Source: Parcubacteria group bacterium GW2011_GWC1_45_14 (GTDB taxonomy: Bacteria; Patescibacteriota; Minisyncoccia; Moranbacterales; GWC2-37-73). Taken from it: DNA of 60,668 bases. Made by a program: the position numbers and the translations under genes. A model generated the notes under the pieces. It was not told where the DNA came from. It worked only from the letters and a program-made list of their open reading frames with translations, and did no database searches. Position 1 is the first letter of the stretch. Each line of letters begins with the position of its first letter. This document shows, one piece after another, positions 5,571 through 55,686 of this stretch. Location of the stretch: assembly GCA_001001345.1 (NCBI GenBank), contig LCKI01000002.1:1-60668 (forward strand). The letters are read 5' to 3'.

Positions 5571-5576
5571 GTATTT

Positions 5577-5660
5577 CTCTACGAATTACGAATATTTTAC
5601 GAATTTACGAATATACAAAAATTTCGTACATTTGTAAATTTGTAATCGATTTGTATTTTC
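5577..5660 (-). repeat. decayed copy of the tacgaat-heptad inverted-repeat element, abutting the topA start codon
   Basis: The minus strand reads ...attcgtaaaatattcgtaattcgtagagaaatacATG. The distal arm has drifted to tacaaat. Confidence 0.7.
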
Positions 5661-5666
5661 GTTTGG

Positions 5667-6758
5667 TTATGATTTTACGTAATTTTGCCCTCCTATGTTC
5701 TTGATTATTCCCTTTATTTCCAGCATCGCGAGCGTCGAGAGGGCGGTCGCTGTCTCCAGTTTAGAGAGTTTCACGACTATGTCAACGTGGACGCTTTCTT
5801 GGCCTAATACGTCTAGGACGCCCCTTTCTTCCTTTGAGGCGGGTTCATATGTATCTTTTTTGGAGGTTTTCGTGGAAGATTTCAATGTTTCGACAAAACT
5901 TATTTCCTCCAAAATGTCAGAAACTGAGGCGGCTAATTTGGCGCCTTTTCGAAGGAGCATGTGCGGACCCTGGCTCTGGAGATGGAAAATTGGTCCGGGC
6001 ACGGCGAAAACTTCCCGGTTGAAATCCAGCGCCAGATTGGCGGTAATAAGGCTTCCGCTGTCCAAAGCCGCCTCCACTACGAGTGTGCCCAGGCTCATTC
6101 CGGCCATGATCCTGTTTCTCGCCGGGAAGCTCCCTGGAAGAGGGGAGGTGCCGGCGGGGTATTCGCTAAGGAGTAATCCGCCGGAGCGGATGATCTCCTG
6201 GGAAAGCTCGAAGTTTGAGCGCGGATGGATACTTTTTTCGTCCAGACCGTTTCCCAAGACCGCGACGGTTTTCCCCTTGGCTTCGAGGGCTCCGGCATGG
6301 GCGATCGCGTCGATGCCGAGTGCCAGCCCGCTGACGACCGTGATCCCGCTATTGGCCAGTTCGCGCCCAAAGGAGCTGGCCACCCGACTTCCGTATTCGG
6401 TGGATTTTCGCGAACCCACGACCGCGATCATCGTGGAATTGAGCAGGGAGAGGTCTCCTTTGGCATAGAGTATATAAGGAGGGTTATGGATTTCTTTGAG
6501 AAGATTCGGATAGGCCGGATCTTCCAGGGAAATGACGGAAATCCCCTCCTTTTCCAATTCCTCCCATTCTTTGTCCAGGTTGATGGAATTTCTTTCCGAA
6601 ATTATTTTCCCCGCCAGGTTTTCGGAAAGTCCCGCCCCGATCAGCTCCGCAAGGGGAGCGCCCCAAGCTTTTTCCGAAGAATCGAAATGCGCCATAAGGA
6701 GCGCCAGCTTCTGACTCCCGACCCCTTCGATTTTATTGAGGGCGTTGAGATATTTCAT
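5667..6758 (-). CDS. dprA: DNA-processing protein DprA (Smf)
   Basis: IAVVGSRKSTEYG, SGLALGIDAIAH and FPARNRIMAG are typical DprA Rossmann-fold motifs. Confidence 0.9.
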   Translation of the reverse strand: MKYLNALNKIEGVGSQKLALLMAHFDSSEKAWGAPLAELIGAGLSENLAGKIISERNSINLDKEWEELEKEGISVISLEDPAYPNLLKEIHNPPYILYAKGDLSLLNSTMIAVVGSRKSTEYGSRVASSFGRELANSGITVVSGLALGIDAIAHAGALEAKGKTVAVLGNGLDEKSIHPRSNFELSQEIIRSGGLLLSEYPAGTSPLPGSFPARNRIMAGMSLGTLVVEAALDSGSLITANLALDFNREVFAVPGPIFHLQSQGPHMLLRKGAKLAASVSDILEEISFVETLKSSTKTSKKDTYEPASKEERGVLDVLGQESVHVDIVVKLSKLETATALSTLAMLEIKGIIKNIGGQNYVKS

Positions 6759-9989: not shown

Positions 9990-11402
9990 ATGCCCAAGAA
10001 AGTAGAAAAGGCCAAAGGTGTTGCCAAAAAGACAGCCAAATCGGCTTCCGCAGGAAAATCTTCCTCCAAGAAAGCGACCAAGAAGATTGAGAAAGTCGAG
10101 GAAGAAATCATGCTTCAGCCGCCGAGGGGAATGAGGGACTTACTTCCAGGGGAACAGCCATATTGGGCGCAGCTTCGAAGAGTCGCTTCCAAATTGGGAC
10201 ATGAATACGGATTCCAACGGATCGATACTCCCGTGGTTGAATATGCCAATCTTTATACCAGGTCCATCGGGGAAGGAACGGATATCGTCGACAAGGAAAT
10301 GTATACTTTCACGACCAGGGGAGGGGACAAGGTGGCGCTCCGTCCTGAATTTACGGCCGGACTTTGCCGGGCCTACATCCAGCACGGAATGAACGTGCTT
10401 CCCAAGCCGGTCAAGCTCTTTTCCATCGGGCCGGTTTATCGATATGACAGACCGCAGGAAGGAAGATACCGCGAGCACTGGCAGGCCAATTTCGACATCT
10501 TCGGAGAGCAGGACGCCGTTTTGGACGCCCAGGTAATCCAATTGGCGCACAGGGTGGTCACGAGTCTCGGGATCAAAAACGTGCAGTTCCAGATAAACAG
10601 CATCGGTTGCCCGAAATGCAGGAATGAATATCAGGACCTATTGGTGGCGTATCTCGAATCGAAAAAACAGAAACTTTGCCAAAACTGCAAGAAAAGATTG
10701 GAAACCAATCCTCTGCGAGTTTTGGATTGTAAGGAAGACAAGTGCATGCAGGTCGCGGCCAATGCCCCGCAATCGGTCGACCACCTTTGCAACGAATGCC
10801 ATGTGCATTTCAAGAGCCTCTTGGAATACCTCGACGAGCTTGATCTTCCATATGTCATCAATCCGCGATTGGTCAGGGGACTGAGTTATTATTCAAAGAC
10901 CGTTTTTGAAATCTGGTCCGGAGATGAGGAGGGCAAGAAGCATTCCCTGGGAGGCGGAGGAAGATATGATTATCTTGTCGAAACTCTCGGAGGGGAGCAT
11001 ACGCCAGCCATGGGATTCGGATTAGGATTGGACAGGTTGGTGGCGGAGATGAAGAGGGTTAAGGCGAAGACCTATGTCGAGCCGAAGCCGAAAGTCTTTT
11101 TGGCCCAACTTGGAGACCTCGCCAAAAAGAAAAGTCTCAAACTTTTTTCTGAGCTTCAGAAAAACGGCATTTTGGTAGCGGAAAGTTTCGGAAGGGGAAG
11201 CTTGAAATCCCAATTGCGCGTCGCCGACCGTCTAGGCGTGGAAGTGACTCTGATCGTGGGGCAAAAGGAAGCTTTGGATGAGACTGCGATAATGAAAGAC
11301 ATGGTAAGTGGAACGCAGGAGAACGTCTCGCACGAGAAGCTCGTCAACGCCGTAAAAAAGATCCTGAAGAACAACGTCGTTGTTTCCAATAACGTTTTAT
11401 AG
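9990..11402 (+). CDS. hisS: histidine--tRNA ligase
   Basis: PRGMRDLLPGE, class II motifs (YRYDRPQEGRYREHWQ, GGGGRYD) and a C-terminal anticodon-binding domain. The ATG at 10110 (MLQPPRGMRD, with gagga upstream) is an equally good start. Confidence 0.93.
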   Translation: MPKKVEKAKGVAKKTAKSASAGKSSSKKATKKIEKVEEEIMLQPPRGMRDLLPGEQPYWAQLRRVASKLGHEYGFQRIDTPVVEYANLYTRSIGEGTDIVDKEMYTFTTRGGDKVALRPEFTAGLCRAYIQHGMNVLPKPVKLFSIGPVYRYDRPQEGRYREHWQANFDIFGEQDAVLDAQVIQLAHRVVTSLGIKNVQFQINSIGCPKCRNEYQDLLVAYLESKKQKLCQNCKKRLETNPLRVLDCKEDKCMQVAANAPQSVDHLCNECHVHFKSLLEYLDELDLPYVINPRLVRGLSYYSKTVFEIWSGDEEGKKHSLGGGGRYDYLVETLGGEHTPAMGFGLGLDRLVAEMKRVKAKTYVEPKPKVFLAQLGDLAKKKSLKLFSELQKNGILVAESFGRGSLKSQLRVADRLGVEVTLIVGQKEALDETAIMKDMVSGTQENVSHEKLVNAVKKILKNNVVVSNNVL

Positions 11403-22380: not shown

Positions 22381-22413
22381 CGGAGTCCGACTCCGATTCG
22401 GAGTCGGACTCCG
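22381..22413. repeat. 33-nt nested palindrome, copy 1 of 2
   Basis: cggagtccgactccg-att-cggagtcggactccg. Each arm is itself palindromic (ggagtc/gactcc). The second copy is at 32908-32940. Confidence 0.9.
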
Positions 22414-22560
22414 GTGAATCAGCAATCTGCGCCGCAAGGTGTTTGATATATGGGTTTTCGGACGAGGGAAGCTAGCCCCTTGCCCGGGAACGCGGATAAT
22501 AAAAAATAAAAATAACCCGTTAACGCGTTAACTCGTTAACCGTCTGACGGGAACAATGAT

Positions 22561-27023: not shown

Positions 27024-28487
27024 ATGTCCAAATCCAAAATATTTTTCTGGTTTTCGGTAAGCTTCATTTGCGGGATCGGTCTGCGGTCTTTTTTCGAAAT
27101 ATCGTCCGCCTTGCTTTTGTTGGGCGTGATAATTTCCATCTCCCTTCTGACTATTTTTTATAAAAATAAGACTGCGGCCCTGGCTGCTTTTTTTATTTTC
27201 GCTTTGGTTTTAGGCGCCTGGGTTCTGGATGGGGATTTGGAGAAAACAAAAAACATTTTCTTGGACGGGAAAAGTATAAACGGGAATGCGGTCATCGTCA
27301 AGGAACCAGAGAAAAAAGAAAATTATCAGAAAATTATCGCATGCTTGGAAGACGAACAGGAAAGGGTTTTGATAAACACCGCGCTTTATCCGGAATATTC
27401 CTATGGCGATAAAATAAATTTGGAATGCGTTTTGAAAATTCCAGAAAACAGGGAAGGGGATTTTGATTACAAATCCTATTTGGCCAAGGATGGTATTATG
27501 TATATCTGCGAAAAGGCGAAGTTGAAAAAAGTGGGAGAAGAGAAAAGAAATTTTCTTTATACGGCTGTTTTGAAAATAAAAAATAAGCTGGATGAAAACA
27601 TCGCGGTCGCCATTCCCCAGCCAGAAGCGGCTCTGGCAAGCGGGATGCTTTTCGGGGGAAGCGACGCGATGTCAGAAAAAGTCCAGGATGCGTTTTCGCG
27701 CACCGGTATGACGCATATAGTGGCGGTCTCGGGATATAACGTCACGATAATCGCGGAGTATCTGGTGCTGCTTGGAATATTTCTGGGACTCTGGCGAAGA
27801 CAAGCCCTTTGGGTGGCGATCTTCGGAATATTTATTTTCGTCGCGATGATAGGTTTTCCGGCGTCCGCGGTTCGGGCGGGTGTGATGGGGACGGTTCTTA
27901 TTTGGGCCATGAAAAACGGCAGACTTTCCAATTCTCTAAATGCTATAATTTTCGCCGGGGCGGTCATGTTGGTTTTCAATCCGATGCTTCTTCGATATGA
28001 CGTCGGTTTCCAACTTTCCTTTTTGGCGACCTTGGGAATCGTCTTGCTTTCTCCTTTGGCGGAAAAAATTTCTCTTCGAAAATTCAATCCGTTGGGAATT
28101 TCGGAAATCATCTTTCTTTCCATCTGCGCGCAGGTTTTCGTGCTCCCGATAATAATGCACAATTTCCAGACAGTCTCCCTGATCTCGCTTTTGGCGAATG
28201 TGTTGGTGCTTCCGATTATTCCGATTTCGATGTTGCTTTCATTTCTCGCGGCGGTCTTTGGAATTTTTCTTGCTCCCGCTTTCAATGTCTTTGCTTGGCT
28301 GGCCTACCTTCCGCTATACTATGAGATAGAAACGATAAATTTCCTTTCCGGATTTTCCTGGGCAAGCAGGACGGTTGAAGATTTTGGCCCGACTGCGGTC
28401 GTTGCGTATTACGCGGCATTGGGGGTTATCATGCTTTCCGTGAAGAAAATTGAAAATGTAAAAATCAAAAATAAAAATGACAGATAA
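27024..28487 (+). CDS. comEC: ComEC/Rec2 DNA-uptake channel, membrane part only (DUF4131-like + competence domain)
   Basis: Polytopic. FSRTGMTHIVAVSGYNVTII is the competence-domain signature. It lacks the metallo-beta-lactamase domain. Confidence 0.85.
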   Translation: MSKSKIFFWFSVSFICGIGLRSFFEISSALLLLGVIISISLLTIFYKNKTAALAAFFIFALVLGAWVLDGDLEKTKNIFLDGKSINGNAVIVKEPEKKENYQKIIACLEDEQERVLINTALYPEYSYGDKINLECVLKIPENREGDFDYKSYLAKDGIMYICEKAKLKKVGEEKRNFLYTAVLKIKNKLDENIAVAIPQPEAALASGMLFGGSDAMSEKVQDAFSRTGMTHIVAVSGYNVTIIAEYLVLLGIFLGLWRRQALWVAIFGIFIFVAMIGFPASAVRAGVMGTVLIWAMKNGRLSNSLNAIIFAGAVMLVFNPMLLRYDVGFQLSFLATLGIVLLSPLAEKISLRKFNPLGISEIIFLSICAQVFVLPIIMHNFQTVSLISLLANVLVLPIIPISMLLSFLAAVFGIFLAPAFNVFAWLAYLPLYYEIETINFLSGFSWASRTVEDFGPTAVVAYYAALGVIMLSVKKIENVKIKNKNDR

Positions 28488-28559
28488 AAATTAAAAATGA
28501 TTTATTGGATTTTGCATTTCATATTGTCATTTTCCATTTTGATATTTGATTTTTAAATC
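28452..28559 (+). repeat. imperfect A/T heptad inverted repeat spanning the comEC stop and the spacer
   Basis: The left arm gtaaaaatcaaaaataaaaatgaca pairs with the right arm tgtcattttccattttgatatttgatttttaaatc (11 consecutive pairs, then 8/10, by hand). Confidence 0.55.
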
Positions 28560-28565
28560 ACTATA

Positions 28566-29429
28566 ATGCCTAATCGCAAATTAATATACGGTCCCTTGCT
28601 CTTTTTCTTTGCCGTGTCCGTGATACTTGGAACCGCCGTCTTTTTCTCGAGAAGCCAGGATATGAAGGTCGTGTTTTTCGACGTGGGGCAGGGGGACGCG
28701 ATTTTGATTTCGCAGGGATCAAATCAGCTTCTCGTCGACAGCGGAAAGAGCGGGCAGATTCTTTTGGAAAAACTCGGAAAGTATATTCCTTTTTGGGACA
28801 GGAAAATAGAGGCAGTCCTTATGACGCACCCAGACCAGGACCATATCGGCGGGTTTGCGGAAGTTTTCAAAAGTTATGATGTCGGGATGGTCATCAGGAC
28901 AAATGCTGAGAACGACTCGCAGACTTTCAAGGCACTGGAAGAATATATAGTCAAAGAAGGAAGCAGTGTCGTCGAGGGAAAAATCGGAACGAAAATAATT
29001 TTTCCAAACGGATCGGAAATGGAAATCGTCTACCCGTTCTCTTCCATCCTTGGGAATTCGAAGGATACCAATGATTCAAGTATCGTTTCCATTTTGGAAT
29101 TCGGCGAAACGAAGTTTTTATTGATGGGCGACCTGACTTCCGAAAAGGAGGAAGAAATCCTGCGGAAAACGATAGATGTTTCCGCTGATATCTTGAAAGT
29201 CGGGCATCATGGTTCCAAATACTCCACCAGCGAAAAATTCCTCGAGAAAGTTTCGCCGAGGAATGCGGTAATCTCGGCCGGGAGGAATAATTCCTATGGG
29301 CATCCTGCTTTGGAAATTCTGGAGAGAATGAAGAAAAGCGGAGTGGAAATTTTCAGGACCGATGAAATCGGGGATATCTCATATGGATGCGACGATCAAA
29401 GGAATGATTGCCAATTGTCCGTGCGGTGA
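28566..29429 (+). CDS. metallo-beta-lactamase-fold protein (ComEC C-terminal nuclease-domain equivalent), membrane anchored
   Basis: FDVGQGDAILI, THPDQDHIGG, GDL....E and GHHGS are MBL motifs. One N-terminal TM. Confidence 0.85.
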   Translation: MPNRKLIYGPLLFFFAVSVILGTAVFFSRSQDMKVVFFDVGQGDAILISQGSNQLLVDSGKSGQILLEKLGKYIPFWDRKIEAVLMTHPDQDHIGGFAEVFKSYDVGMVIRTNAENDSQTFKALEEYIVKEGSSVVEGKIGTKIIFPNGSEMEIVYPFSSILGNSKDTNDSSIVSILEFGETKFLLMGDLTSEKEEEILRKTIDVSADILKVGHHGSKYSTSEKFLEKVSPRNAVISAGRNNSYGHPALEILERMKKSGVEIFRTDEIGDISYGCDDQRNDCQLSVR

Positions 29430-32899: not shown

Positions 32900-32907
32900 T
32901 TTCACAG

Positions 32908-32940
32908 CGGAGTCCGACTCCGAATCGGAGTCGGACTCCG
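32908..32940. repeat. 33-nt nested palindrome, copy 2 of 2
   Basis: cggagtccgactccg-aat-cggagtcggactccg. The arms are identical to those at 22381-22413. Confidence 0.9.
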
Positions 32941-35405: not shown

Positions 35406-35500
35406 CACTACGAATTACGAATTTTACGAAACTACGAATGGATTCATACAGTTTGTGAAATCACGGGTTCGTACATTCGTAAAATTCGTAATTCGTAGAG
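35406..35500 (+). repeat. tacgaat-heptad inverted-repeat element, copy B1
   Basis: cactacgaattacgaattttacgaaactacgaa...ttcgtacattcgtaaaattcgtaattcgtagag. The arms pair at 29/31 positions. It starts 4 nt after the upstream stop and ends 7 nt before the next ATG. Confidence 0.9.
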
Positions 35501-35507
35501 AAAAACT

Positions 35508-37437: not shown

Positions 37438-37648
37438 TATTTTGCTGTACGAAAGGCGGTTTTCACAAGGAGTTGCTGGAAATCGCAAGCAGTGTTTTTT
37501 GTTAGTTTCCGCATACTTGCGGTCAATAGCGGGAAGCGAGTTGCAAGGAGCGTAAGAAATTAATTATATATGGAATCAAAGGTTTCGATTTCCATGTTTT
37601 TACTTCCAGTCGATTTTCGGTGTTTGGGAATTCAACATTGGGATTTGA

Positions 37649-37682
37649 TTAGAAATTAGAAATTAGAAATTAGAAATTAGAG
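37649..37682 (+). repeat. tandem heptamer ttagaaa x4.8, ending 6 nt before the rpsL start
   Basis: ttagaaa ttagaaa ttagaaa ttagaaa ttagag. Confidence 0.9.
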
Positions 37683-38116: not shown

Positions 38117-38233
38117 AATTAAATATCAAAAATCAAAATTAAAAATTAAAGTATTCGCTTCGCTCATGACTTTTGAAAAAAAATGTTGCGAAGCAACACT
38201 ATAATTTTACATTTTGAGATTTAAATTTTGAAT
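38117..38233 (+). repeat. A/T heptad-rich spacer with a central GC hairpin (rpsL-rpsG)
   Basis: atcaaaa atcaaaa ttaaaaa..., the gcttcgc/gcgaagc stem (38157-38163 / 38188-38194), then ...ttttgag atttaaa ttttgaa. The arm pairing is only approximate. Confidence 0.45.
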
Positions 38234-42769: not shown

Positions 42770-42810
42770 GTTTCTTGAAAGGGATATAGGGATTGTTGAA
42801 AATATAAGCA

Positions 42811-42911
42811 CTAGTTAAAGTCCCGTCGCTCACGAGCGACAGGATACTCAACTAGCCAGAAATTCGCTCTCGCAAAGAGAGCTTGGGAAACTGGCTTGTT
42901 GGCCAGTTTTT
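42811..42911 (+). promoter_or_regulatory. structured spacer ending in a terminator-like hairpin between rpsJ and rplC
   Basis: ctagtt/aactag encloses gtcgct-cacg-agcgac. Then gctctc-gcaaa-gagagc, then aaactggc-ttgttg-gccagttt plus TTT. Confidence 0.45.
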
Positions 42912-43000
42912 GTGCAAATTGGGAATCGGAATTATTTGTTGGGTATAATTAAGAATATCTGCCGACTAGGCGGATTAGAAAAGATTAGAAATCAAATCAT

Positions 43001-43564
43001 ATGGCAAAATTCATAATCGGAAAAAAATTGGGAATGACGACGATATATGACAAGGAAGCGGGAGCTTTGAACGTGACCTTGATCGAGTGCGAACCTAATA
43101 AGGTTTCCCACCTAAGGACAAGTGAGAAGGATGGATATGATGCGATTCAGTTGGAGGTTTCCAAGACAAAAAACAAGCTTTACAAGAAAGAGTTCAGGAT
43201 CGGAGAGGCTACCGAGGTCAAAGTCGGGGATGATATGACACTTGAAGGATTCGCTATCGGAGACAAGGTTAAGATCAGCGGAATTTCGAAAGCCAAGGGA
43301 TTCCAGGGTGTGGTCAAGAGGCACGGATTCAAAGGATCCCCTGCAACCCATGGTCACAAACATGATCATCGCGCCCCAGGTTCGATCGGTGCGCAGCAGC
43401 CGCAGCACGTTATCAAGGGAAAGAGGATGGCCGGAAGGATGGGAGGAAAAAGAGCCAGCTCACTGAATATAAAAATTGCCTATATCGACATGGAAAAGAA
43501 TATTCTCGGAGTAAAGGGAGCTGTTCCCGGAGTAGCCGGAAGGATAGTCGAGATAGTGGGATAA
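43001..43564 (+). CDS. rplC: 50S ribosomal protein L3
   Basis: GKKLGMTTIYD and KAKGFQGVVKRHGFKGSPATHG. Confidence 0.95.
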   Translation: MAKFIIGKKLGMTTIYDKEAGALNVTLIECEPNKVSHLRTSEKDGYDAIQLEVSKTKNKLYKKEFRIGEATEVKVGDDMTLEGFAIGDKVKISGISKAKGFQGVVKRHGFKGSPATHGHKHDHRAPGSIGAQQPQHVIKGKRMAGRMGGKRASSLNIKIAYIDMEKNILGVKGAVPGVAGRIVEIVG

Positions 43565-43620
43565 GAAGCAGTGGAGATAATAAAAGATAAATTCAGCGTA
43601 AATTAGGGAATAACAATATT

Positions 43621-44274: not shown

Positions 44275-44676
44275 ATGGCATTGTTTAGCAAAGAAAAAAT
44301 CGAAGAAGAAAAAGAAGAGAAGAAATCTTCCAAGAAAGATGACGCGGTCAAGACAAATAAGGCCAAGGTCGTTTTGAATACGAAAAATTCCGAAGTGGCA
44401 TATAGAGTGTTGGTTGAGCCATGGGTAACCGAAAAGACGCATTCGATGATGAGTGCTAACAAATACGTCTTCAAGGTAGCCAGCGGTGCGACGAAGACGG
44501 AAGTCAAAAGCGCTATCGAGGGGATTTATGGAGTGAAGGTGGAAAAAATTGCCGTTGTGAATATTTCATCCAAGGCCAAGTATTTCGGAAGGCACAAGGG
44601 ACTTAAGGCGGGATTCAAGAAGGCAATCCTAACATTGAAAAAAGGGGATTCAATAGAGTTGTTCCAGGGAGCATAA
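44275..44676 (+). CDS. rplW: 50S ribosomal protein L23 (with a charged N-terminal extension of about 35 aa)
   Basis: YRVLVEPWVTEKT...YVFKV....K.E.K.A.E..Y.VKV..V. Confidence 0.93.
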   Translation: MALFSKEKIEEEKEEKKSSKKDDAVKTNKAKVVLNTKNSEVAYRVLVEPWVTEKTHSMMSANKYVFKVASGATKTEVKSAIEGIYGVKVEKIAVVNISSKAKYFGRHKGLKAGFKKAILTLKKGDSIELFQGA

Positions 44677-44733
44677 GGCGAATTGGGAATAAATAAACGA
44701 TAAAATTAGAGTTAATTAGCGATTTACACCATT

Positions 44734-45915: not shown

Positions 45916-45991
45916 CGCCACGACTCGCGAACAGATAAAAAATATTGGAGATAATTAGCGATAAAATTAGCGAAGCTTAGGATAAAATTAT

Positions 45992-46528
45992 ATGAAAGTA
46001 GAAGCAACACTCAAAAATTTAAGAGTATCCCCACGAAAGGTCAGATTGGTTATCAATCTTATCAAGGGTATGGATGTGGCCAACGCTTTGGTGCAGCTCT
46101 CCCTTGCAGTGAAGGGTTCAAGTCGTGAAATCGAGAAGCTTTTGAAAAGCGCGATAGCGAATGCTGAGAATAATTTCGGTTTGGACAGGGACAATCTTAT
46201 GGTTGCCGACATCCAGGTTGGAGGAGGTCCTACGCTGAAAAGATGGCTTCCGAGAGCTCATGGAAGAGCCACGCCTCTCATGAAAAGGACTTCGAATGTG
46301 TATCTGGTTTTGGATGAAAAGATAGAAGGAATGAAAAAGAAGGCTAAAGCTAAAAAAATCGAAAAGAAAGCTGTTGAGACCGAGGAAGTGAAGACCGAAT
46401 CCGAATCCAAGGAGAGCAAGAAGGCGGTTGTCGCTAAAAGCGCTCCAGCAAAGAATTCGCCAGCTGGCGGACTAAAAGGACAGAAGGGCGCGTTCGCAAA
46501 GAAGTCCTTCCAGAGAAAATCGGTATAA
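45992..46528 (+). CDS. rplV: 50S ribosomal protein L22 (Lys-rich C-terminal extension of about 65 aa)
   Basis: LRVSPRKVRLVINLIKG and RAHGRATPLMKRTSNV. Confidence 0.95.
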   Translation: MKVEATLKNLRVSPRKVRLVINLIKGMDVANALVQLSLAVKGSSREIEKLLKSAIANAENNFGLDRDNLMVADIQVGGGPTLKRWLPRAHGRATPLMKRTSNVYLVLDEKIEGMKKKAKAKKIEKKAVETEEVKTESESKESKKAVVAKSAPAKNSPAGGLKGQKGAFAKKSFQRKSV

Positions 46529-46599: not shown

Positions 46600-47241
46600 A
46601 TGGGAAAGAAAGTTAATCCAACGGGACTCAGGCTAGGAATTACAACTACTTGGAAATCAAAGTGGTTTTCCAGCAGGGGATATGCGAAAAACTTAAGACA
46701 GGATGTCGAAATAAGGGAGCTTGTTTCAAAGCGTTGGAAAACTGCTTCCATTGCCGAAGTAGGATTGGAAAGATCCGCTAATACGATCAAGTTGGTAATC
46801 AAGACGTCTCGCCCTGGAGTTCTTATCGGAAGAGGAGGATCCGGAATAGAAGATATCAGCAAGGCAGTCAAGGAGAATTTTTTCGCAAACAAGAAAGTTG
46901 ACCTCAAGGTTGAAATCCAAGAAGTCAAGCAGTTTGAGGAAAACGCCTCATTGGTGGCCCAGAGCGTGGCTGAGCAGATTGAAAAAAGAGTTCCATTCAG
47001 AAGGATTTTGAAATCGACTTTGGACGCTGTCGAAAAGAACAGGAACGTCAAAGGTGTGAAGATCGAAATCTCGGGAAGACTTGGAGGAGCTGAAATGTCC
47101 AGAAGAGAATGGCTTTCAAGAGGAACTGTTCCTCTTCACACGCTGAGGGCGGACATAGATTTCGCCAGAGCGACAGCCCACACTACCTATGGAGCGATCG
47201 GAGTTAAAACGTGGATATACAAAGGGGAGATATTTGAGTAA
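46600..47241 (+). CDS. rpsC: 30S ribosomal protein S3
   Basis: MGKKVNPTGLRLGI, the KH domain, GRLGGAEMSR. Confidence 0.97.
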   Translation: MGKKVNPTGLRLGITTTWKSKWFSSRGYAKNLRQDVEIRELVSKRWKTASIAEVGLERSANTIKLVIKTSRPGVLIGRGGSGIEDISKAVKENFFANKKVDLKVEIQEVKQFEENASLVAQSVAEQIEKRVPFRRILKSTLDAVEKNRNVKGVKIEISGRLGGAEMSRREWLSRGTVPLHTLRADIDFARATAHTTYGAIGVKTWIYKGEIFE

Positions 47242-47242
47242 G

Positions 47243-47358
47243 CACTACGAATTAAGAATTTTACGAAACTACGAAACTGATAATGGAAGGAATCAGATTA
47301 TAAATGAATATAGCGTGAAATGCGGTTCGTACATTCGTACAATTCGTATTTCGTAGAG
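47243..47358 (+). repeat. tacgaat-heptad inverted-repeat element, copy B2 (fills the rpsC-rplP spacer)
   Basis: cactacgaattaagaattttacgaaactacgaa...ttcgtacattcgtacaattcgtatttcgtagag. The arms pair at 26/31 positions. It starts 1 nt after the stop and ends 8 nt before the ATG. Confidence 0.9.
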
Positions 47359-47366
47359 AAAAACAT

Positions 47367-47780
47367 ATGTTGATGCCAAAAAAAGTAAAACACAGAAAGA
47401 TCCACAGGGGTGGAGCCATCAAAGGTATTGCTACTAAAGGTAATACGGTGAGCTTCGGAAGCTTCGGTTTGCAGGCGGCTACCGCTGGTCTTATTTCATC
47501 AAGACAGATCGAGGCAGCTCGTCGCGCGATGACCAGATATATCAAAAGAGGAGGCAAGATCTGGATCAGGATTTTTCCAGATAAGCCGATGACTAAAAAG
47601 GGAAGCGAGGTACCGATGGGTAAGGGAAAAGGAAGCGTCGATCACTTTGTCGCGAAGACGAAGCAGGGAAGGATTCTTTTCGAGATGGATGGTATCACTG
47701 AGGACGTGGCAAGGGAAGCTATGAGATTGGCATCACATAAGCTTTGCGTACAGACGAAATTCGTCGTCAGACAAAAGTAA
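47367..47780 (+). CDS. rplP: 50S ribosomal protein L16
   Basis: [24 protein letters not shown]. Confidence 0.97.
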
Positions 47781-47804
47781 CATTTATAAAATAGGAGCAA
47801 TATT

Positions 47805-48005
47805 ATGAAAATAGGTGAAATCAAAGACATGAAAAAAGAGGAACTGAAAAAGTTCATCGAAGAAAAGAGAGCGCTGGCCGTTAAGCTTAGATTTGATATT
47901 GCAGCAAAACAACTCAAGAACCACCAGGAATACAGGAAGACCAGGAAGGAGATGGCCAGGGCATTGACGGTTCTCGGGGCATTGGAAAATGGAAATAATG
48001 AATAA
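47805..48005 (+). CDS. rpmC: 50S ribosomal protein L29
   Basis: Position between L16 and S17, and the helical ELKKFIEEKR...LRFDIAAKQLKNHQEYRKTRKEMAR. Confidence 0.9.
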   Translation: MKIGEIKDMKKEELKKFIEEKRALAVKLRFDIAAKQLKNHQEYRKTRKEMARALTVLGALENGNNE

Positions 48006-48028
48006 TTTTAATCATAAAGTCAACTAGC

Positions 48029-48262
48029 ATGGAAACAGGCATAAAAAAAGTGAAGAAAGGCGTAGTTGTCAGCGATGCCATGGACAAGACTATTGTTGTT
48101 GCAATCGATACGCTGAAAACTCACTCGAAATATTTGAAAAAATACAAGTCGACCAAAAAATACAAGGTCCACGACGAGGAAAACAAATTCAAGAAAGGCG
48201 ACGTGGTTGAATTCGTCGAATGCAGCCCGATAAGCAAAGACAAGTCGCACAAGGTTTTATAA
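48029..48262 (+). CDS. rpsQ: 30S ribosomal protein S17
   Basis: GVVVSDAMDKTIVVAID....H.KY.K......KY.VHDE.N....GD.V. Confidence 0.94.
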   Translation: METGIKKVKKGVVVSDAMDKTIVVAIDTLKTHSKYLKKYKSTKKYKVHDEENKFKKGDVVEFVECSPISKDKSHKVL

Positions 48263-48293
48263 CGCATAACGCATAACGCATAGCGCATAACGC
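48259..48293 (+). repeat. tandem heptamer ataacgc x5, starting inside the rpsQ stop codon
   Basis: ataacgc ataacgc ataacgc atagcgc ataacgc, then a degenerate aggaaacgc. Confidence 0.9.
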
Positions 48294-48344
48294 AGGAAAC
48301 GCAGAGCGGTTCCACGATACGCGTGCCACGTTTTACGAATATAT

Positions 48345-48710
48345 ATGATTCAAGCAGAGACAAAATTGAAGGTAGCAGACAATTCCGGAGCGAAGGTGAT
48401 CGAATGCTTCAAGGTTCTAGGTGGAACCAGAAGGCGTTATGCTTCCGTCGGAGATATCATCGTCGCTTCTGTCAAATCGGCGGAACCGAGAGGGATGGTG
48501 AAAAAAGGTGACAAGGTAAGAGCTGTCATCGTCAGGCAGGCCAAATCACTGAGAAGGAAGGATGGATCATATATCAAGTTCGATGAAAATGCGGCGGTGA
48601 TAGTGGACGGACAGGAGCCGAAAGGAACGCGTATCTTCGGACCGATCGCGAGGGAACTTCGAGAGAAGGGATACAGCAAGATCGTTTCCTTGGCGCCGGA
48701 AGTTTTATAA
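48345..48710 (+). CDS. rplN: 50S ribosomal protein L14
   Basis: [17 protein letters not shown]. Confidence 0.97.
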
Positions 48711-48749
48711 GACAATTAACTATAAGTCATCAGTCATAAGTTATATCGT

Positions 48750-49055
48750 ATGAGAATAAAAAAAGGAGATCAGATACAAGTCATAGCGGGAAAAAGCAAG
48801 GGCAAGAAAGGAAAGGTCACGCGTGTTTTGCCTGCTTCGGGAAAGATCGTCGCTGAAAAGATAAATGTGATGAAAAAACACATGAAACCGAAAAGGGAAG
48901 GCGAGAAAGGACAGATCGTGGAAGTTGACGCTCCTTTTGACGTATCGAATGCGATGCTTGTTTGTCCGGAGTGTGGAAAGATGACCAGGGTCGGATATTC
49001 GGTTAAAAATGGAAACAAATCCCGAGTCTGCAAGAAATGTAAAAAGGAATTTTAA
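48750..49055 (+). CDS. rplX: 50S ribosomal protein L24 (with a C-terminal Zn ribbon)
   Basis: The KOW motif IKKGDQIQVIAGKSKGKKGKV, and CPECG...CKKC. Confidence 0.94.
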   Translation: MRIKKGDQIQVIAGKSKGKKGKVTRVLPASGKIVAEKINVMKKHMKPKREGEKGQIVEVDAPFDVSNAMLVCPECGKMTRVGYSVKNGNKSRVCKKCKKEF

Positions 49056-49076
49056 TTAGATTGAATATATATCATT

Positions 49077-49625
49077 ATGAAAGTCGTTACAACAAAAGAT
49101 AAATATATAGAAACCGTCGTTCCTGCAATGGAAAAGAAGTTTGGCTATGGGAACGTTATGGCTGCCCCGAGAATTTTGAAAGTTGTTGTGAATGTTGGAA
49201 CCGGAAAATTGGGCAAAGAGGGGGACAAGGCTCAGGAGGTTTTCGACTCGATAATGGTGATCGCCGGACAAAAACCGGTTAAAACGAAAGCCAAGAAGGC
49301 TATCGCCGGATTCAAGACAAGAGAAGGAATGGAAGTGGGAGTTAAGGTGACTCTCCGAGGAAAAAGGATGTGGTCCTTCATTGACAGGTTGGTAAACGCG
49401 ACGCTTCCCCGAACGAAAGATTTCCAGGGAATACCCGTATCTTCGGTCGATTCCAATGGAAACCTGAACATCGGAATCAAGGAGCACCTCATTTTTCCTG
49501 AAATTTCACCTGAGCAGGTAAAGACGATATTCGGAATGCAGGTTACGGTCACATCTACGGCCAAGAGCAAAGAAGAAGGAACGGAATTTTACAGACTGCT
49601 GGGATTTCCATTGAGAAAGAATTAA
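49077..49625 (+). CDS. rplE: 50S ribosomal protein L5
   Basis: VVNVGTG...GQKPV.TKAKK.IA.FK.REGM.VG.KVTLRGKRMW.F.DRL. Confidence 0.96.
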   Translation: MKVVTTKDKYIETVVPAMEKKFGYGNVMAAPRILKVVVNVGTGKLGKEGDKAQEVFDSIMVIAGQKPVKTKAKKAIAGFKTREGMEVGVKVTLRGKRMWSFIDRLVNATLPRTKDFQGIPVSSVDSNGNLNIGIKEHLIFPEISPEQVKTIFGMQVTVTSTAKSKEEGTEFYRLLGFPLRKN

Positions 49626-49649
49626 ATATAAAGTAATAGATCATATAAT

Positions 49650-49835
49650 ATGGCAAAAACATCAACACAGGCTAGGGCATTGAAAACACCTAAATTCTCG
49701 ACAAGGATCGTGAGAAGGTGCTGGAGGTGCGGCAGAAAACACGGATATCTGCGAAAATTTGAAATATGCAGGATCTGTTTCCGCGAGCTTGCAAGCAAGG
49801 GAGAAATCCCAGGAGTAAAGAAGAGCAGTTGGTAG
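49650..49835 (+). CDS. rpsN: 30S ribosomal protein S14 (Zn-binding type Z)
   Basis: 61 aa; [25 protein letters not shown]. Confidence 0.95.
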
Positions 49836-49882
49836 GGAATATTTTGATAATTGATTTAATTTTGAATTCACAATAAAAGCGT

Positions 49883-50287
49883 ATGTTAGATACAATCAGC
49901 GACATGCTTACCAGGATAAGGAACGCCCAGATGGCTGGACACAAGGAAGTGGAAATGCCATTTTCCAAATTGAAATTGGCCATCGCGAAAATCCTGGAAG
50001 AGAAAAATTTCATAGATTCCGTTGCCAAGGAAGGCGAGGACACGGCTACTAAAGTCCGCATCCAGCTTAAATATGAAAATATTTCAAATAACAAAAAAGT
50101 TCCTGTCATCAGGGGGATCAGAAGGGTCAGTAGGGAAGGACAGAGAATTTATGTCAAGAAAAATGAAATAAAGTCAGTTAAGAGCGGATATGGAATCTCG
50201 GTAGTTTCGACATCGAGAGGGGTGATGACCGGAGAGGATGCCAGAAAGAAGGGTCTTGGAGGGGAAGTGATCTGTGAAGTCTGGTAG
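49883..50287 (+). CDS. rpsH: 30S ribosomal protein S8
   Basis: MLDTISDMLTRIRNA...GGEVICEVW. Confidence 0.96.
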   Translation: MLDTISDMLTRIRNAQMAGHKEVEMPFSKLKLAIAKILEEKNFIDSVAKEGEDTATKVRIQLKYENISNNKKVPVIRGIRRVSREGQRIYVKKNEIKSVKSGYGISVVSTSRGVMTGEDARKKGLGGEVICEVW

Positions 50288-50290
50288 GGA

Positions 50291-50407
50291 GATTGAAGGT
50301 GCAAAGCTCAAGGTGCGAAATTATGGAGTCGCTGCGCGACGACATTGGAAGGATTATGAGCGAAGCGAACACGATAATTTTAAATTTTGATTTTTAAATT
50401 TTGATTC
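50291..50407 (+). repeat. heptad-built hairpin filling the rpsH-rplF spacer; it pairs better as plus-strand RNA
   Basis: Left arm gattgaaggtgcaaagctcaaggtgcgaaattatgg against right arm cgataattttaaattttgatttttaaattttgattc. By hand, 36 positions give 22 Watson-Crick pairs and 6 G-U pairs. Central gtcgc-tgc-gcgac hairpin. Confidence 0.65.
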
Positions 50408-50419
50408 ACATTCATTAAT

Positions 50420-50956
50420 ATGAGCAGATTAGGAAAAAGACCAATAGCCATACCAAGCGGAGTTACCGTCGAAGTTAAAGACGATACCGTTTCAGTCAAG
50501 GGACCAAAAGGAACCCTCTCTTTCGAGTACAAAAGAGAAGTCGAGGTCAAAGTTTCCGAGGAAGGTGTCGTGGTTGAGAAAAAAGGAAAATCCAAGGAAG
50601 CGCCTGCGATCTGGGGAACTACAGCCAGGATGATCGAAAATTTGATCACTGGTGTGACAGCTGGTTTCCAAAAACAACTTGAATTAAACGGAGTCGGCTT
50701 TAGGATGGCAGTTGCTGGAAAGAAGATAAACCTGGCTCTCGGATTCTCGCACCCGGTGGAGGTTGAGATAGTCGAGGGGATCGATGTCAAAATCGAAGGA
50801 AACACGCTGACTGTGTCCGGAATAGACAAGCACGCCGTAGGACAGTTCGCTGCCAACGTCAGGAAGCTCAAGCCTGTCGAACCATACAAAGGAAAAGGAT
50901 TCAAATATGTCGGAGAATTCGTGAGAAGGAAAGAAGGAAAGAGGTCGGCAGCCTAA
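50420..50956 (+). CDS. rplF: 50S ribosomal protein L6
   Basis: MSRLGKRPIAIPSGV...PYKGKGFKY. Confidence 0.96.
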   Translation: MSRLGKRPIAIPSGVTVEVKDDTVSVKGPKGTLSFEYKREVEVKVSEEGVVVEKKGKSKEAPAIWGTTARMIENLITGVTAGFQKQLELNGVGFRMAVAGKKINLALGFSHPVEVEIVEGIDVKIEGNTLTVSGIDKHAVGQFAANVRKLKPVEPYKGKGFKYVGEFVRRKEGKRSAA

Positions 50957-50992
50957 ACAACGGGAAATAATTTTTGTTAAATAAATCGGATT

Positions 50993-51343
50993 ATGAAGAA
51001 GATAGATAAAAAAGAGCTGAGGCTCAAGAGAAGAAGAAGGGTTAGGGCTAAGGTTTCCGGAACCGCCCAAAGGCCTCGTCTTGCTGTGTACAAGAGCTTG
51101 ACGAATATCTATGCCCAGCTTATCGACGACGTCGCTGGCAAGACTTTGGCCCAGGCCAATATCAAGGAAGTCGCCAAGGGTAAGAACGACATGGACGGTG
51201 CCAAGGAAGTCGGAAAGCTCATCGCCAAGAAGGCTAAGGAGGTTAAAATCTCGGAGATCGTTTTTGACAGGGGCGGATACAACTATCATGGAAAGATCAA
51301 ATCATTAGCAGACGGAGCCAGGGAAGGCGGATTGAAGTTTTAG
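50993..51343 (+). CDS. rplR: 50S ribosomal protein L18
   Basis: [20 protein letters not shown]...[26 protein letters not shown]. Confidence 0.96.
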
Positions 51344-51351
51344 GTAAAAAT

Positions 51352-51469
51352 CACTACGAATTACGAATTATACGAAACTACGAAAAGATTCGGAAGTGAG
51401 AAATTATCGGCATATTTAACTTAAAGGGAGATACGGTTCGTACATTCGTACAATTCGTACTTCGTAGAG
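51352..51469 (+). repeat. tacgaat-heptad inverted-repeat element, copy B3 (fills the rplR-rpsE spacer)
   Basis: cactacgaattacgaattatacgaaactacgaa...ttcgtacattcgtacaattcgtacttcgtagag. The arms pair at 27/31 positions. It ends 11 nt before the ATG. Confidence 0.9.
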
Positions 51470-51480
51470 AAAAACATATT

Positions 51481-51975
51481 ATGGTCAATAAAAACAGCAG
51501 AAAACCTAAAAGACGAGAAAAGCCGGAGTTTGAACAGAAACTTCTCGATTTGGCCCGTGTGACCCGTGTGGTGAAGGGAGGAAGAAGATTTCGTTTCCGA
51601 GCCACTTTGGTGATCGGAGACCGCAAAGGACAGGTCGGCGTGGGAGTAGCCAAGGGAACGGACGTTTCTGATTCCATCCAGAAGGCTTTCAATGATGCCA
51701 AGAAGAATATGATAACCGTAAAGCTCGATGGAAATACTATTCCTCATGATGTGACCAAAAAACTTGGAAGCGCGAAAGTTCTTCTTAAGCCCGCCATCGA
51801 AGGACGCGGAATCATCGCTGGAGGAGCTGTCCGAGCCGTAGTGGACCTCGCTGGAATCAGGGACATCATTTCCAAATCTCTCGGTTCCTCGAACAAGTTA
51901 AATGTAGCCAGAACCACAGTCGAGGCGCTTCGCGAGTTGAAAGCCCCAAGAGTAGCCAAGGAAGACACTAAGTAA
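51481..51975 (+). CDS. rpsE: 30S ribosomal protein S5
   Basis: VTRVVKGGRRFRFRATLVIGD..G.VG.G.GK. Confidence 0.97.
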   Translation: MVNKNSRKPKRREKPEFEQKLLDLARVTRVVKGGRRFRFRATLVIGDRKGQVGVGVAKGTDVSDSIQKAFNDAKKNMITVKLDGNTIPHDVTKKLGSAKVLLKPAIEGRGIIAGGAVRAVVDLAGIRDIISKSLGSSNKLNVARTTVEALRELKAPRVAKEDTK

Positions 51976-53858: not shown

Positions 53859-53871
53859 TAGCGTTTCGCGG

Positions 53872-53988
53872 AATTTCAAATTTCAAATTTCAAATTTTAG
53901 ATAAATTTTTCACCTGGCCTAGCCGGAACCCCTTCCGGGTCATGCCGCTTGCCGTTCGTTTGGAGTTTGATATTTGTCATTTGGGATT
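53872..53988 (+). repeat. heptad hairpin with a GC-rich centre (secY-adk spacer)
   Basis: aatttca x3 (53872-53892) pairs with tgatatt/tgtcatt/tgggatt (53968-53988) at 6/7, 5/7 and 7/7, counting G-U. Centre: ccggaa-cccc-ttccgg. Confidence 0.55.
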
Positions 53989-54042
53989 TCCAAGATTTTT
54001 TATTTGACCTTCGAAAAAATAAAATAATAATTTGGAAAACAA

Positions 54043-54699: not shown

Positions 54700-55467
54700 A
54701 TGGAAATAAAAGCTAAAACTGAAAGGGATATAGGGACCATGCGCGAAGCCGGCAGTAAACTTTTCGCCGTGATGGAAGAATTGGAAAAGAATGTGCAGCC
54801 GGGAGTCAACACATATGATTTGGACAAGCTCGCCGAAGAGCTTGTTTTGGCAAGCGGCGGGACCCCCGCTTTTAAGGGTTATGGCGAACGCTCCAATCCT
54901 TTTCCGGCGACCATCTGCGCCTCGGTCAATGACGAGATTGTGCATGGGATCCCAAGAAAAGAAACCATTCTCGCCAAAGGGGATATTTTGAAAATAGACA
55001 TCGGCATGAAATACCACGGTTTTTTCGTGGACATGGCCAGGACTTTCGCGGTGGGAAAAATCAGCCACCAGGCGCAAAATCTTATCGCAGCCACGGAACA
55101 ATGTTTTTGGGCTGGAGCGGAGGCCATGAAGCCGGGAGCGATGCTGAGCGACTATTCCAAGGCAGTGGAAGAGTATATCAGAAAGACTCCCTATGCTATC
55201 GTGAGAAATTTGGTGGGGCACGGGATCGGAAGAGATCTTCATGAAGAACCGCAAATCCCGAATTTCCATGACGGATCGATGCCGGATTTCGAATTGGAAG
55301 CGGGGATGACTTTCGCCTTGGAGCCGATGATCAACGAAGGGACGCACAGGACCAAGATCGGTCAGGACGGTTGGGTTTTCGAGACGGCTGATGGAAAACT
55401 TTCGGCGCATTATGAAAACACCATAGTCATCACGGAAGACGGGGTGGAAGTTCTGACGCAACTCTAA
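54700..55467 (+). CDS. map: type I methionine aminopeptidase
   Basis: VHGIP, DIGMKYHGFFVDMARTF, GHGIGRDLHEEP, ALEPM and the HYENT region. Confidence 0.96.
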   Translation: MEIKAKTERDIGTMREAGSKLFAVMEELEKNVQPGVNTYDLDKLAEELVLASGGTPAFKGYGERSNPFPATICASVNDEIVHGIPRKETILAKGDILKIDIGMKYHGFFVDMARTFAVGKISHQAQNLIAATEQCFWAGAEAMKPGAMLSDYSKAVEEYIRKTPYAIVRNLVGHGIGRDLHEEPQIPNFHDGSMPDFELEAGMTFALEPMINEGTHRTKIGQDGWVFETADGKLSAHYENTIVITEDGVEVLTQL

Positions 55468-55578
55468 CGAATTACGAATTTTTTACAAATTTACGAATTT
55501 ACGAATATACGAACGGATCCTTCTTGGATTTTTTTGTACATTTGTAAATTCGTAATTAGATTTGTACTTTTGTAGTGG
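55462..55578 (-). repeat. inverted, decayed orphan copy of the tacgaat element, overlapping the map stop codon
   Basis: ctctaacgaattacgaattttttacaaatttacgaatttacgaatatacgaa...tttgtacatttgtaaattcgtaattagatttgtacttttgtagtgg. Confidence 0.7.
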
Positions 55579-55589
55579 AAATAAAAAAA

Positions 55590-55625
55590 GACCCCGTCGA
55601 CTGCAAATGCAGAAGAATCGGGGTC
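55590..55625 (-). terminator. intrinsic terminator of the minus-strand membrane-protein gene
   Basis: gaccccg...cggggtc stem with T7 on the minus strand. Confidence 0.7.
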
Positions 55626-55686
55626 GTGGTTTGATTAAACTCCTAAGTCGGTCCTTGGCAATGGAATAAAATTTACGGCCAAGGGG

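Follow-up and report, generated by a model that had tools for sequence, protein, structure and literature searches.

A family of inverted TTCGTA-word repeats next to start codons, mainly in Patescibacteria

Introduction

Why should several unrelated genes of one small genome, among them genes of a ribosomal-protein operon, be preceded by the same inverted repeat, and what kind of element is it? The question is raised by contig LCKI01000002.1 of Parcubacteria group bacterium GW2011_GWC1_45_14 (assembly GCA_001001345.1), whose full 60,668 nucleotides (nt) are called the window in what follows. An initial annotation of this stretch had noticed a hairpin-forming element, built from short repeated words, directly in front of the start codon of rplP and of other genes. 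It offered RNase III processing, translational gating and a selfish insertion element as possible explanations.

Patescibacteria account for a substantial part of bacterial diversity. Their gene expression is barely known, and their genomes are usually called streamlined and repeat-poor. Here we show that the elements of the window belong to a real repeat family which occurs mainly in Patescibacteria and matches no described family. Its unit is a defined 32-nt module found in at least 87 species, where it lies on the start region of core genes such as those for ribosomal proteins, EF-G, GroEL and topoisomerase. If the module affects initiation or translational coupling, it provides a concrete and testable handle on translation control in Patescibacteria, and cultivated Saccharibacteria have become genetically tractable (PMC10633639). 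Should it be purely selfish, it shows that a tiny insertion module can settle in those spacers of a minimal genome that are under the strongest constraint, and can enter proteins as well. Either way, the heptamer repeats of Beggiatoaceae and cyanobacteria become linked to a much wider phenomenon.

Results

Five copies of one asymmetric element in the window

The window contains five copies of the element, named c1 to c5 (Table 1). Three of them had been placed at 35406-35500, 47243-47358 and 51352-51469, and the sequence agrees with these positions. An exact recount also gave the arm pairing first counted by hand, 29/31 in c1, 26/31 in c2 and 27/31 in c3, all of it Watson-Crick with zero G-U pairs; the inverted repeat of c1 was additionally found as 31 nt with 94% complementarity. 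The opening CAC lies 3, 1 and 8 nt after the upstream stop codon in c1, c2 and c3, within the 1-8 nt reported before. At the end of all three copies stands GAGAAAAAC, separated from the ATG by T, AT or ATATT. Pfam identifies the flanking pairs as PolB-exonuclease-like/DUF5654, S3/L16 and L18/S5, in keeping with the genes named initially, and confirms that copies stand inside the S10-spc operon directly before starts. The decayed copy before topA is likewise real (c4, flanked by DprA/TopA), with the tail TTCGTAGAGAAATAC immediately 5' of the topA ATG on the minus strand. It is thus correct that the repeat itself provides the common sequence immediately upstream of these start codons. The count of four copies stood as far as it went; it had missed c5, which precedes no start codon.

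The copies are neither accidental nor independent of each other. With at most one mismatch, TTCGTANNTTCGTA has 14 matches in the window where 0.28 are expected; none of 100 shuffles attains 14, so that chance is excluded. A profile built from 149 arms matches only c1 to c5 in the window. Between copies, left arms are identical at 29-30 of 31 positions and right arms with tail at 37-40 of 41. The arms are therefore nearer to their counterparts in other copies than to their own partners, which argues for descent from one asymmetric element. A 2-nt mismatch at the same place in c1 to c3, taken initially as a sign of common descent or of a shared structural feature, does exist as AC opposite CA at the innermost spacer, but it is specific to this lineage and not a property of the family. 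Four other assemblies of the same species (L200-L203) carry an identical c2, compared base by base; these loci are 99.7-100% identical to the window overall and therefore uninformative for compensatory change. The window itself belongs to the species of assembly GCA_001001155.1. Outside the elements, TTCGTA/TACGAA occurs 19 times in both orientations, as against about 35 expected from base composition. A role as DNA uptake sequence was rejected on this count.

Table 1. Positions and architecture of the five copies in the window and of the hairpin that follows c5 (ORF, open reading frame)
Feature	Coordinates	Strand	Arms and centre	Tail and start codon	Upstream gene and remarks
c1	35406..35507	+	left arm 35408-35438; centre 35439-35467 (29 nt); right arm 35468-35498	GAGAAAAACT, then ATG 35508 (DUF5654 gene)	PolB-exonuclease-like gene, stop at 35402
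c2	47243..47366	+	left arm 47245-47275 (word 2 mutated to TAAGAA); centre 50 nt; right arm 47326-47356	GAGAAAAACAT, then rplP ATG 47367	rpsC, stop at 47241
c3	51352..51480	+	left arm 51354-51384; centre 52 nt; right arm 51437-51467	GAGAAAAACATATT, then rpsE ATG 51481	rplR, stop at 51343
c4	5571..5662	-	intact start-side arm 5577-5611 (five words); stop-side arm 5623-5662, decayed to TACAAA words	AGAAATAC, directly abutting topA ATG (5570-5568)	dprA ORF 5667-6758 (-) ends just before c4; profile match E 9e-11
c5	55467..55575	+	longer variant, 5-6 words per arm; left TACGAA/TACAAA, right TTTGTA/TTCGTA	no start codon 3' of c5	begins on last base of map stop codon; profile match
GC-rich hairpin	55591..55628	.	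GACCCCG...CGGGGTC		T-run on minus strand; read from sequence; putative terminator

The operon containing c5 has its 3' boundary at the GC-rich hairpin behind this copy. From its sequence, this hairpin is probably the intrinsic-terminator-like site of a convergent gene of 99 amino acids.

A 32-nt module restricted to certain lineages

The arm is a stretch of 32-35 nt with the pattern TTCGTA-N2-TTCGTA-N3-5-TTCGTA-N1-TTCGTAG and AGA as its usual extension. The hairpin element of 70-120 nt is composed of two such arms, one of them inverted, with a centre of 6-55 nt between them that varies and evolves fast. Species-representative genomes were scanned for exactly this pattern, so the following figures are lower bounds. 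At least 119 stretches in at least 87 assemblies match. Among the matches listed, record titles assign about 63 to Patescibacteria, 8 to Bacteroidota and 2 to Omnitrophota, 8 carry no label, and 6 are titled Bdellovibrionales/Gammaproteobacteria, titles which are not verifiable. The Patescibacteria among the matches listed include Moran-, Saccharibacteria, Parcu-, Falkow-, Nealson-, Doudna-, Uhr-, Nomura-, Magasanik- and others; the closest named neighbours of the window among them are Moranbacteria. The family is lineage-restricted, since loci picked solely for encoding L16 (80 loci, 734 kb, mostly from other bacteria) contained the arm in only two cases. Viral contigs gave zero matches to the arm pattern and thus no sign of a phage vector.

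Word starts in the collected loci follow each other at 8, 10/11 and 7 nt in 137 of 191 arrays and at the window's 8, 9 and 7 nt in 12; uniform 7-7-7 arrays of TTCGTA were absent from all 191. This fixed, non-uniform spacing characterises a defined module of about 32 nt and not a simple tandem repeat. Rfam returned nothing at gathering thresholds for the whole window and nothing at E <= 1 for 47100-51600, and a tRNA scan found nothing. A literature search for the exact word arrays found unrelated eukaryotic matches only, and the literature on Patescibacteria repeats yielded no description. The initial impression of an undescribed family therefore stands for this exact family, but short repeat words that abut start codons have already been published. 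What is new in comparison with known start-codon repeats is the combination of a word-based and palindromic build, a distribution that spans phyla and is centred on Patescibacteria, and copies inside genes.

Position relative to start and stop codons

A census over the collected loci comprises 123 elements, 78 hairpins and 45 single arms. Thirty-five hairpins stand between a stop and a start codon that are each at most 25 nt away; the stop is separated from CTAC by a median of 5 nt (range 0-20), and GTAG from ATG by a median of 9 nt (range 3-19). The suspected preference for start codons was borne out: an ATG-led ORF lies within 20 nt of 33% of arms, compared to 7.6% of random positions. It is no strict rule, since c5 does not precede a start codon and 12 single arms adjoin stop codons instead of starts, contrary to the claim that each copy does.

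Concerning the single arms, the GTAG end faces a start in 18 and a stop in 12, and the inner end seldom touches a gene. Start-facing single arms are found both in tiny stop-to-start spacers (stop 8-31 nt upstream) and past long non-coding or divergent regions, which indicates that they are not merely decayed hairpins. The outer GTAG is invariant, though imposed by the search pattern, and in hairpins it pairs with the CTAC of the partner. AGA commonly follows TTCGTAG on start-facing and other ends alike, so the palindrome reaches TCT...AGA. On the start side the consensus continues as AGAAAWWC-ATG. The string AGAAATAC-ATG precedes different genes in different genomes (c4 and loci L027, L084 and L061), and the tail aaaaacatattATG of c3 also stands before a gene at 13301 that has no TTCGTA arm.

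Open reading frames directly 3' of arms encode L16 (three times), L4, EF-G, GroEL, YchF (twice), PilB/T-like ATPases (twice), TopA, GyrB, PolA, FtsW and SmpB. Leaders in the window are A/T-rich, and a Shine-Dalgarno core (GGAG, GAGG or AGGA) is found upstream of only 8 of 58 start codons. In Bacteroidota, a phylum with little Shine-Dalgarno use, arms abut start codons as well.

The stem and its polarity

All five copies fold more stably than expected, with z-scores of -7.7 (c1), -2.7 (c2), -4.3 (c3), -3.5 (c4) and -6.8 (c5) and energies of -43 kcal/mol for c1 and -38.8 kcal/mol for c5. The perfect duplex of roughly 30 bp assumed initially is approached by c1 alone; c2 and c3 consist of helices of 6-8 bp with mismatches between them. 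Complementarity of the arms was evaluated in 21 hairpins with both arms matching the strict pattern and compared to 2000 shuffles. The innermost 2-nt spacer is complementary at 1.33 of 2 positions (0.77 by chance; 0 of 2000 shuffles equal it), and the outer three bases at 1.57 of 3 are also above chance (1.16). Complementarity of the middle spacer lies below chance, at 0.22 versus 0.40, with 1999 of 2000 shuffles higher. The usual stem therefore consists of two helices of about 14 bp separated by an internal loop.

The two arms differ in composition. In start-facing arms the middle spacer contains 62% A and 18% T, in stop-facing arms 39% A and 35% T. A Nomurabacteria genome has the CAAAA...G arm towards the start and the ATTT...T arm towards the stop in 5/5 copies, and in the window the GAGAAA tail is start-facing in 4/4 copies. 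The energies of arms folded alone lie between 0 and -5.7 kcal/mol (z-scores -0.8, 0.2 and 0.2); a single arm is unstructured as RNA. A hairpin is not needed at starts, given that single arms alone also precede start codons.

Arms inside genes

Four single arms lie in frame within Pfam-confirmed domains, namely in a Peptidase_U32 protein, a MiaB-like radical-SAM enzyme and two FemAB proteins. The inserts encoded are STKYELNTKLRT in Peptidase_U32 and PTNYEFNTNIRI in the MiaB-like enzyme. The coding strand is the stop-free CTACGAA strand in all four cases. The Peptidase_U32 insert is common to homologues down to about 75% identity and is therefore old and vertically inherited; the same loop holds different periodic low-complexity inserts, or none, in other homologues. 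These intragenic arms are the strongest evidence for DNA that is capable of insertion rather than solely a leader motif that arose in place.

The Peptidase_U32 loop, situated after CSQPCRW, is a hot spot in its own right. Across the homologues P0001-P0060 it contains inserts such as KFEISNMKSEI, NFQFPISNFQTPCLPAG and KSQIANRKSQT. They resemble translated heptad-word arrays, some with a GC hairpin.

Gain, loss and conservation in relatives

Relatives of the window show empty sites at the L18-S5, post-map and S3-L16 positions. One of them, L120, shares 95% identity in the L16 protein and about 75% in coding DNA. Its L18-S5 spacer is an unrelated 43 nt without the element, and none follows map either. 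In its S3-L16 spacer the left arm is decayed or lost, and about 65 nt remain (GTGAAATGCGG, right arm and tail) which are about 90% identical to the window. The element before rplP is absent from L121 and L122 (L16 85% identical) and from every more distant relative inspected, and it is present in two further lineages whose L16 is 69% and 74% identical to that of the window. An arm before ychF has been retained in two genomes with 74% identical YchF, alongside a TTGATT box 22-23 nt upstream. Element sites therefore turn over, and elements that persist keep their start-side arm.

Discussion

A proposed insertion module that may serve as leader

We consider it about an even call that the family is an insertion module, similar to miniature inverted-repeat transposable elements (MITEs) or REPINs, which survives in operon spacers and whose start-side arm and A-rich tail are used as leader. 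A selfish element of the MITE type, already among the options of the initial annotation, fits best with the empty and half-decayed sites in relatives, with the left/right asymmetry common to the copies and with the in-frame arms in genes. We infer mobility, transcription through the element and any effect on translation. The module would insert or duplicate and would persist where it is least harmful, in short operon spacers. Its GTAG end would remain a few nucleotides from a stop or start codon, and the element would be co-transcribed with the operon. Because the genome rarely uses Shine-Dalgarno sequences, the start-side arm together with the A-rich tail (AGAAAWWC-ATG) would effectively be the whole downstream leader. 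A lone arm, being unstructured as RNA, would permit ribosome entry. A hairpin would fold the insert aside and keep the stop codon of the first gene and the start codon of the second at a distance of about 14 nt across the stem base; a ribosome terminating 1-8 nt 5' of the stem would melt this base and expose the start region, so that coupling is preserved. Selection would then retain the start-side arm while the centre and the stop-side arm decay.

Several observations weigh against this account. Target-site duplications were looked for at c1 to c3 and at the four intragenic arms, and none was found; the AAAAAC tail belongs to the element. A Pfam scan of 26 ORFs of the 60-kb window revealed no transposase, and no RAYT gene was seen, though no genome-wide search for one was made. 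No parent element with a left arm, an ORF of 0.7-3 kb and a right arm was noticed in about 0.9 Mb of loci, where no systematic search was run. The centres of c1 to c3 are barely alignable, unlike those of recent MITE copies. Concerning a role as leader, c5 and the 12 single arms face stops, not starts, and insertion into spacers of 12-50 nt makes closeness to both codons partly trivial. In 13 of 51 start-adjacent hairpins a co-directional stop is missing from the nearest 36 nt, which excludes translational coupling as their role. Among 55 oriented hairpins, the sense strand folds more stably in 24 and the antisense strand in 30 (Wilcoxon p = 0.5), and G-U pairs do not differ (91 sense, 81 antisense). 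There is thus no strand-specific evidence of selection on an RNA helix, and polarity is found in composition only. Finally, gene conversion among copies could explain the conservation of the start-side arm instead of selection at the level of the host.

Alternative explanations

Instead of spreading for its own sake, the arm might be the recognition site of a conserved factor, and the elements a phylum-wide regulon or an initiation signal independent of Shine-Dalgarno sequences, with copying being secondary. Such a factor could bind the leader RNA with domains that each recognise about 7 nt (ribosomal protein S1, cold-shock-domain proteins), or it could be a DNA-binding protein for heptad arrays in direct and inverted orientation (ribbon-helix-helix repressors, omega/MetJ type). 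A site of this kind is suggested by the four-word architecture, whose spacing is fixed and non-uniform and which recurs in at least 87 species of several classes and phyla, by words that are conserved between spacers left free or actively non-complementary, and by single arms retained at orthologous positions before ychF and rplP. Some single arms also lie just 3' of good sigma-70-like promoters, as read by eye (TCGACA-17-TATAAT in L090, TTGATT-17-TAGAAT in L013), which would put them in the 5' untranslated region. The same idea has been published for TAACTGA repeats (PMC4679880), and a partner is suspected for the heptamers of Nostoc (bioRxiv 10.1101/2022.06.06.494920). Yet the same spacers hold other word arrays (CGCATAA, ATTAGAA, TTTCAAA, AAATTTTGA), each of which would require its own factor. 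Moreover, arms are freely lost in close relatives, their two orientations (18 start-facing, 12 stop-facing) and their presence inside genes speak against a reader acting purely on RNA, and a candidate protein was not found. On balance we regard a factor site as rather unlikely. Its most far-reaching form, in which a conserved Patescibacteria factor reads the (TTCGTA)4 arm as a phylum-wide, copied signal for Shine-Dalgarno-independent initiation or coupling and the other heptad words are parallel signals, we judge unlikely.

Processing by RNase III, or a role in mRNA stability within polycistronic transcripts, was the main idea of the initial annotation. Correia/NEMIS and ERIC repeats elsewhere in bacteria are processed or influence mRNA stability, the present hairpins reach -20 to -43 kcal/mol within operons, and c1 with its 29/31 Watson-Crick pairs attains the 20 bp or so, or more, of near-continuous duplex expected of an RNase III stem. 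We nevertheless find this explanation highly doubtful. The sub-chance complementarity of the middle spacer (0.22 vs 0.40) leaves helices of about 14 bp, which are short for RNase III, and folding does not differ between sense and antisense. Single arms, incapable of forming a duplex, sit at the same positions, and L120 has retained the right arm while its left arm decayed.

The start-side half might further contain an internal promoter, which would make the element a portable promoter cassette. In c2, GTGAAA-N17-TACAAT agrees with the promoter consensus at 9/12 positions and is the one decent site in any copy, and hexamers and spacing are kept in L120 despite two mutated TTCGTA words; the A-rich middle spacer of start-facing arms moreover gives -10-like TA(C/T)AAA(A)T strings. 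A cassette of this type is very improbable, however, as promoter-like sites in the region (24 versus 18.2 +/- 4.5 expected) are not enriched overall, c1, c3 and c4 read from sequence have no good -35 box at proper spacing, the commonest spacing of the family (N4-5) yields no proper -10 hexamer, and c5 would fire into a terminator.

Simple-sequence repeats made in situ by replication slippage, with neither copying between sites nor an effect on expression, are scarcely probable. In their favour, the long simple repeats of many prokaryotes are most commonly heptanucleotide tandems (Mrazek 2007, summarised in PMC4679880), and many heptad words do occur in these genomes, both intergenic and in a tolerant protein loop. 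Against them, word spacing is fixed and non-uniform (8, 10/11, 7), copies within one genome have arm-specific spacers and tails in common, at least 87 species contain one and the same 32-nt string, and the TTCGTA hexamer is not enriched outside the elements (19 vs ~35 expected).

Further candidates were tried and rejected. A terminator scan picked none of the elements as intrinsic terminator, and their AT-rich stems are followed by GAGAAAAAC. Integron attC sites are characterised by R''/R' cores (RYYYAAC ... GTTRRRY), which are absent; the ends are CACTACGAA and TTCGTAGAG, and the neighbours are housekeeping genes in conserved operon order. Where words 1 and 2 meet, the sequence TAnnTTCG is close to the -7 box of Bacteroidetes (TAnnTTTG), and c5 has the exact box. 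However, a -33 box at the right distance is absent and c5 faces a terminator, so we treat the likeness as coincidence. A comparison of the arm with generally conserved 3' sequences of 16S rRNA, the window having no 16S gene of its own, suggested no convincing complementarity.

Relation to known repeats

By function and position the closest systems are the TAACTGA and cyanobacterial heptamers, by structure REP/REPIN and MITE elements; the TTCGTA family is a member of none of them. TAACTGA direct repeats were described in marine Beggiatoaceae, some cyanobacteria and Bacteroidetes (MacGregor 2015, PMC4679880), and TTTTGAA/TTCAAAA heptamers near starts in Nostoc PCC 7120 (bioRxiv 10.1101/2022.06.06.494920). 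Like the TTCGTA arms, they are short words in two to six repeats a few nucleotides upstream of starts, occur in ribosomal-protein operons and before genes without recognisable Shine-Dalgarno sequence, are patchy across phyla and are suspected of translational regulation. Forward arms near Shine-Dalgarno-less starts of ribosomal operons, the arrangement of TAACTGA leaders, are found before rplP and rpsE in the window, and elsewhere before rplP and rplD. The differences lie in the word itself, in its spacing of 8, 9-11 and 7 rather than head-to-tail 7, in the usually inverted pairs that form a hairpin, in the mainly Patescibacteria hosts and in the long-inherited in-frame copies within genes.

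REP, BIME and REPIN sequences carry a GTAG tag and are mobilised by RAYT transposases (Di Nocera 2013, PMC3733652; Bertels and Rainey 2011, PMC3116915). They share with the TTCGTA elements an extragenic location mostly between co-directional genes, inverted doublets that fold into a larger hairpin with a short spacer in between, single units beside doublets, the outer GTAG (imposed here by the search pattern), occasional intragenic copies and conserved arms around a variable spacer. Indeed, 78 of the 123 elements are inverted doublets and 35 of these lie between a stop and a start. However, a REP unit forms a GC-rich palindrome of 20-40 bp on its own and leaves its GTAG unpaired, whereas the TTCGTA arm is a direct-repeat array that does not pair with itself and whose GTAG pairs with the partner. 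TTCGTA elements are also AT-rich and abut starts, while REPs mainly follow stops.

The bacterial MITEs Correia/NEMIS (Neisseria), ERIC/IRU (enterobacteria) and RUP and BOX (pneumococcus) are intergenic elements of 70-150 nt bounded by inverted repeats. They are co-transcribed with their neighbours, whose expression they can change, and are polymorphic for presence and absence. The TTCGTA family agrees with them in its terminal inverted repeats (31-nt arms paired at 26-29/31) and in its presence/absence polymorphism at orthologous sites (L120, L121, L122), and no target-site duplication like theirs was found at c1 to c3 or at the four intragenic arms. It differs in that its centres are not conserved, its inverted repeats are themselves arrays of one 6-nt word and it spans classes and phyla rather than one genus. 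Small dispersed repeats of Nostocales, tens of nucleotides long, have reportedly inserted between and within genes without an obvious transposase (Elhai et al. 2008). They differ in sequence and host, and are not known to be built from repeated words or tied to start codons.

Other repeats of the window and its relatives

Arrays of many different words are common in Patescibacteria loci, including other spacers of the operons in the window. At 37648-37681 a pure tandem of (ATTAGAA)x5 ends 7 nt before the rpsL (S12) ATG at 37689, exactly the TAACTGA-type arrangement (PMC4679880); ATTAGAA arrays also occur in L053, L083 and L119. The S17-L14 spacer (48263-48344) is filled by (CGCATAA)x4 and, beyond a centre, by a right half that is partly complementary. 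A decayed homologue is found at the same site in L120 (~10920-10990), and an 81%-identical copy in the L6-L18 spacer of L121 (10706-10781). Since the latter spacer is a different one, this second word family also moves between spacers. A family of AAATTTTGA/TTTTAAAT words around ...GCGAAGCGAAC... is represented at 38117-38231 (S12-S7 spacer) and, inverted, at 50356-50406 (S8-L6), with an 80%-identical copy in L121 (13676-13801). Three spacers, 43560-43619 (L3-L4), 44673-44732 (L23-L2) and 45934-45993 (S19-L22), have in common a 60-nt repeat of GATAAA/TTAGCG type which ends at the start codon. The 184-nt SecY-adk spacer contains (TTTCAAA)x3-4 and a partly complementary partner at 53866-54000; TTTCAAA/AATTTGA arrays are also present in L026, L027, L047 and L115. 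The S10-L3 spacer (42770-43000) is unusually long with 231 nt, folds strongly at -64.8 kcal/mol and has no Rfam match.

Two GC-rich palindromes with a 15-bp stem (CGGAGTCCGACTCCG-ATT-CGGAGTCGGACTCCG) lie about 10 kb apart at 22381-22416 and 32905-32940 and are 97% mutually complementary. One of them follows the nrdD stop by 5 nt, and both look REP-like or terminator-like. In Saccharibacteria/Parcubacteria loci (L028, L052, L058, L099), CCTCGCAATGAC(G/A) adjoins several arms and may be another widespread repeat. At 28456-28558 a hairpin with 44-nt arms of AAAAATCAAAAAT-type words is located between the ComEC Competence ORF (27024-28487) and the Lactamase_B ORF (28566-29429). The Competence ORF stops within the left arm and the Lactamase_B ORF starts 8 nt past the right arm; the element thus appears to split comEC into two ORFs.

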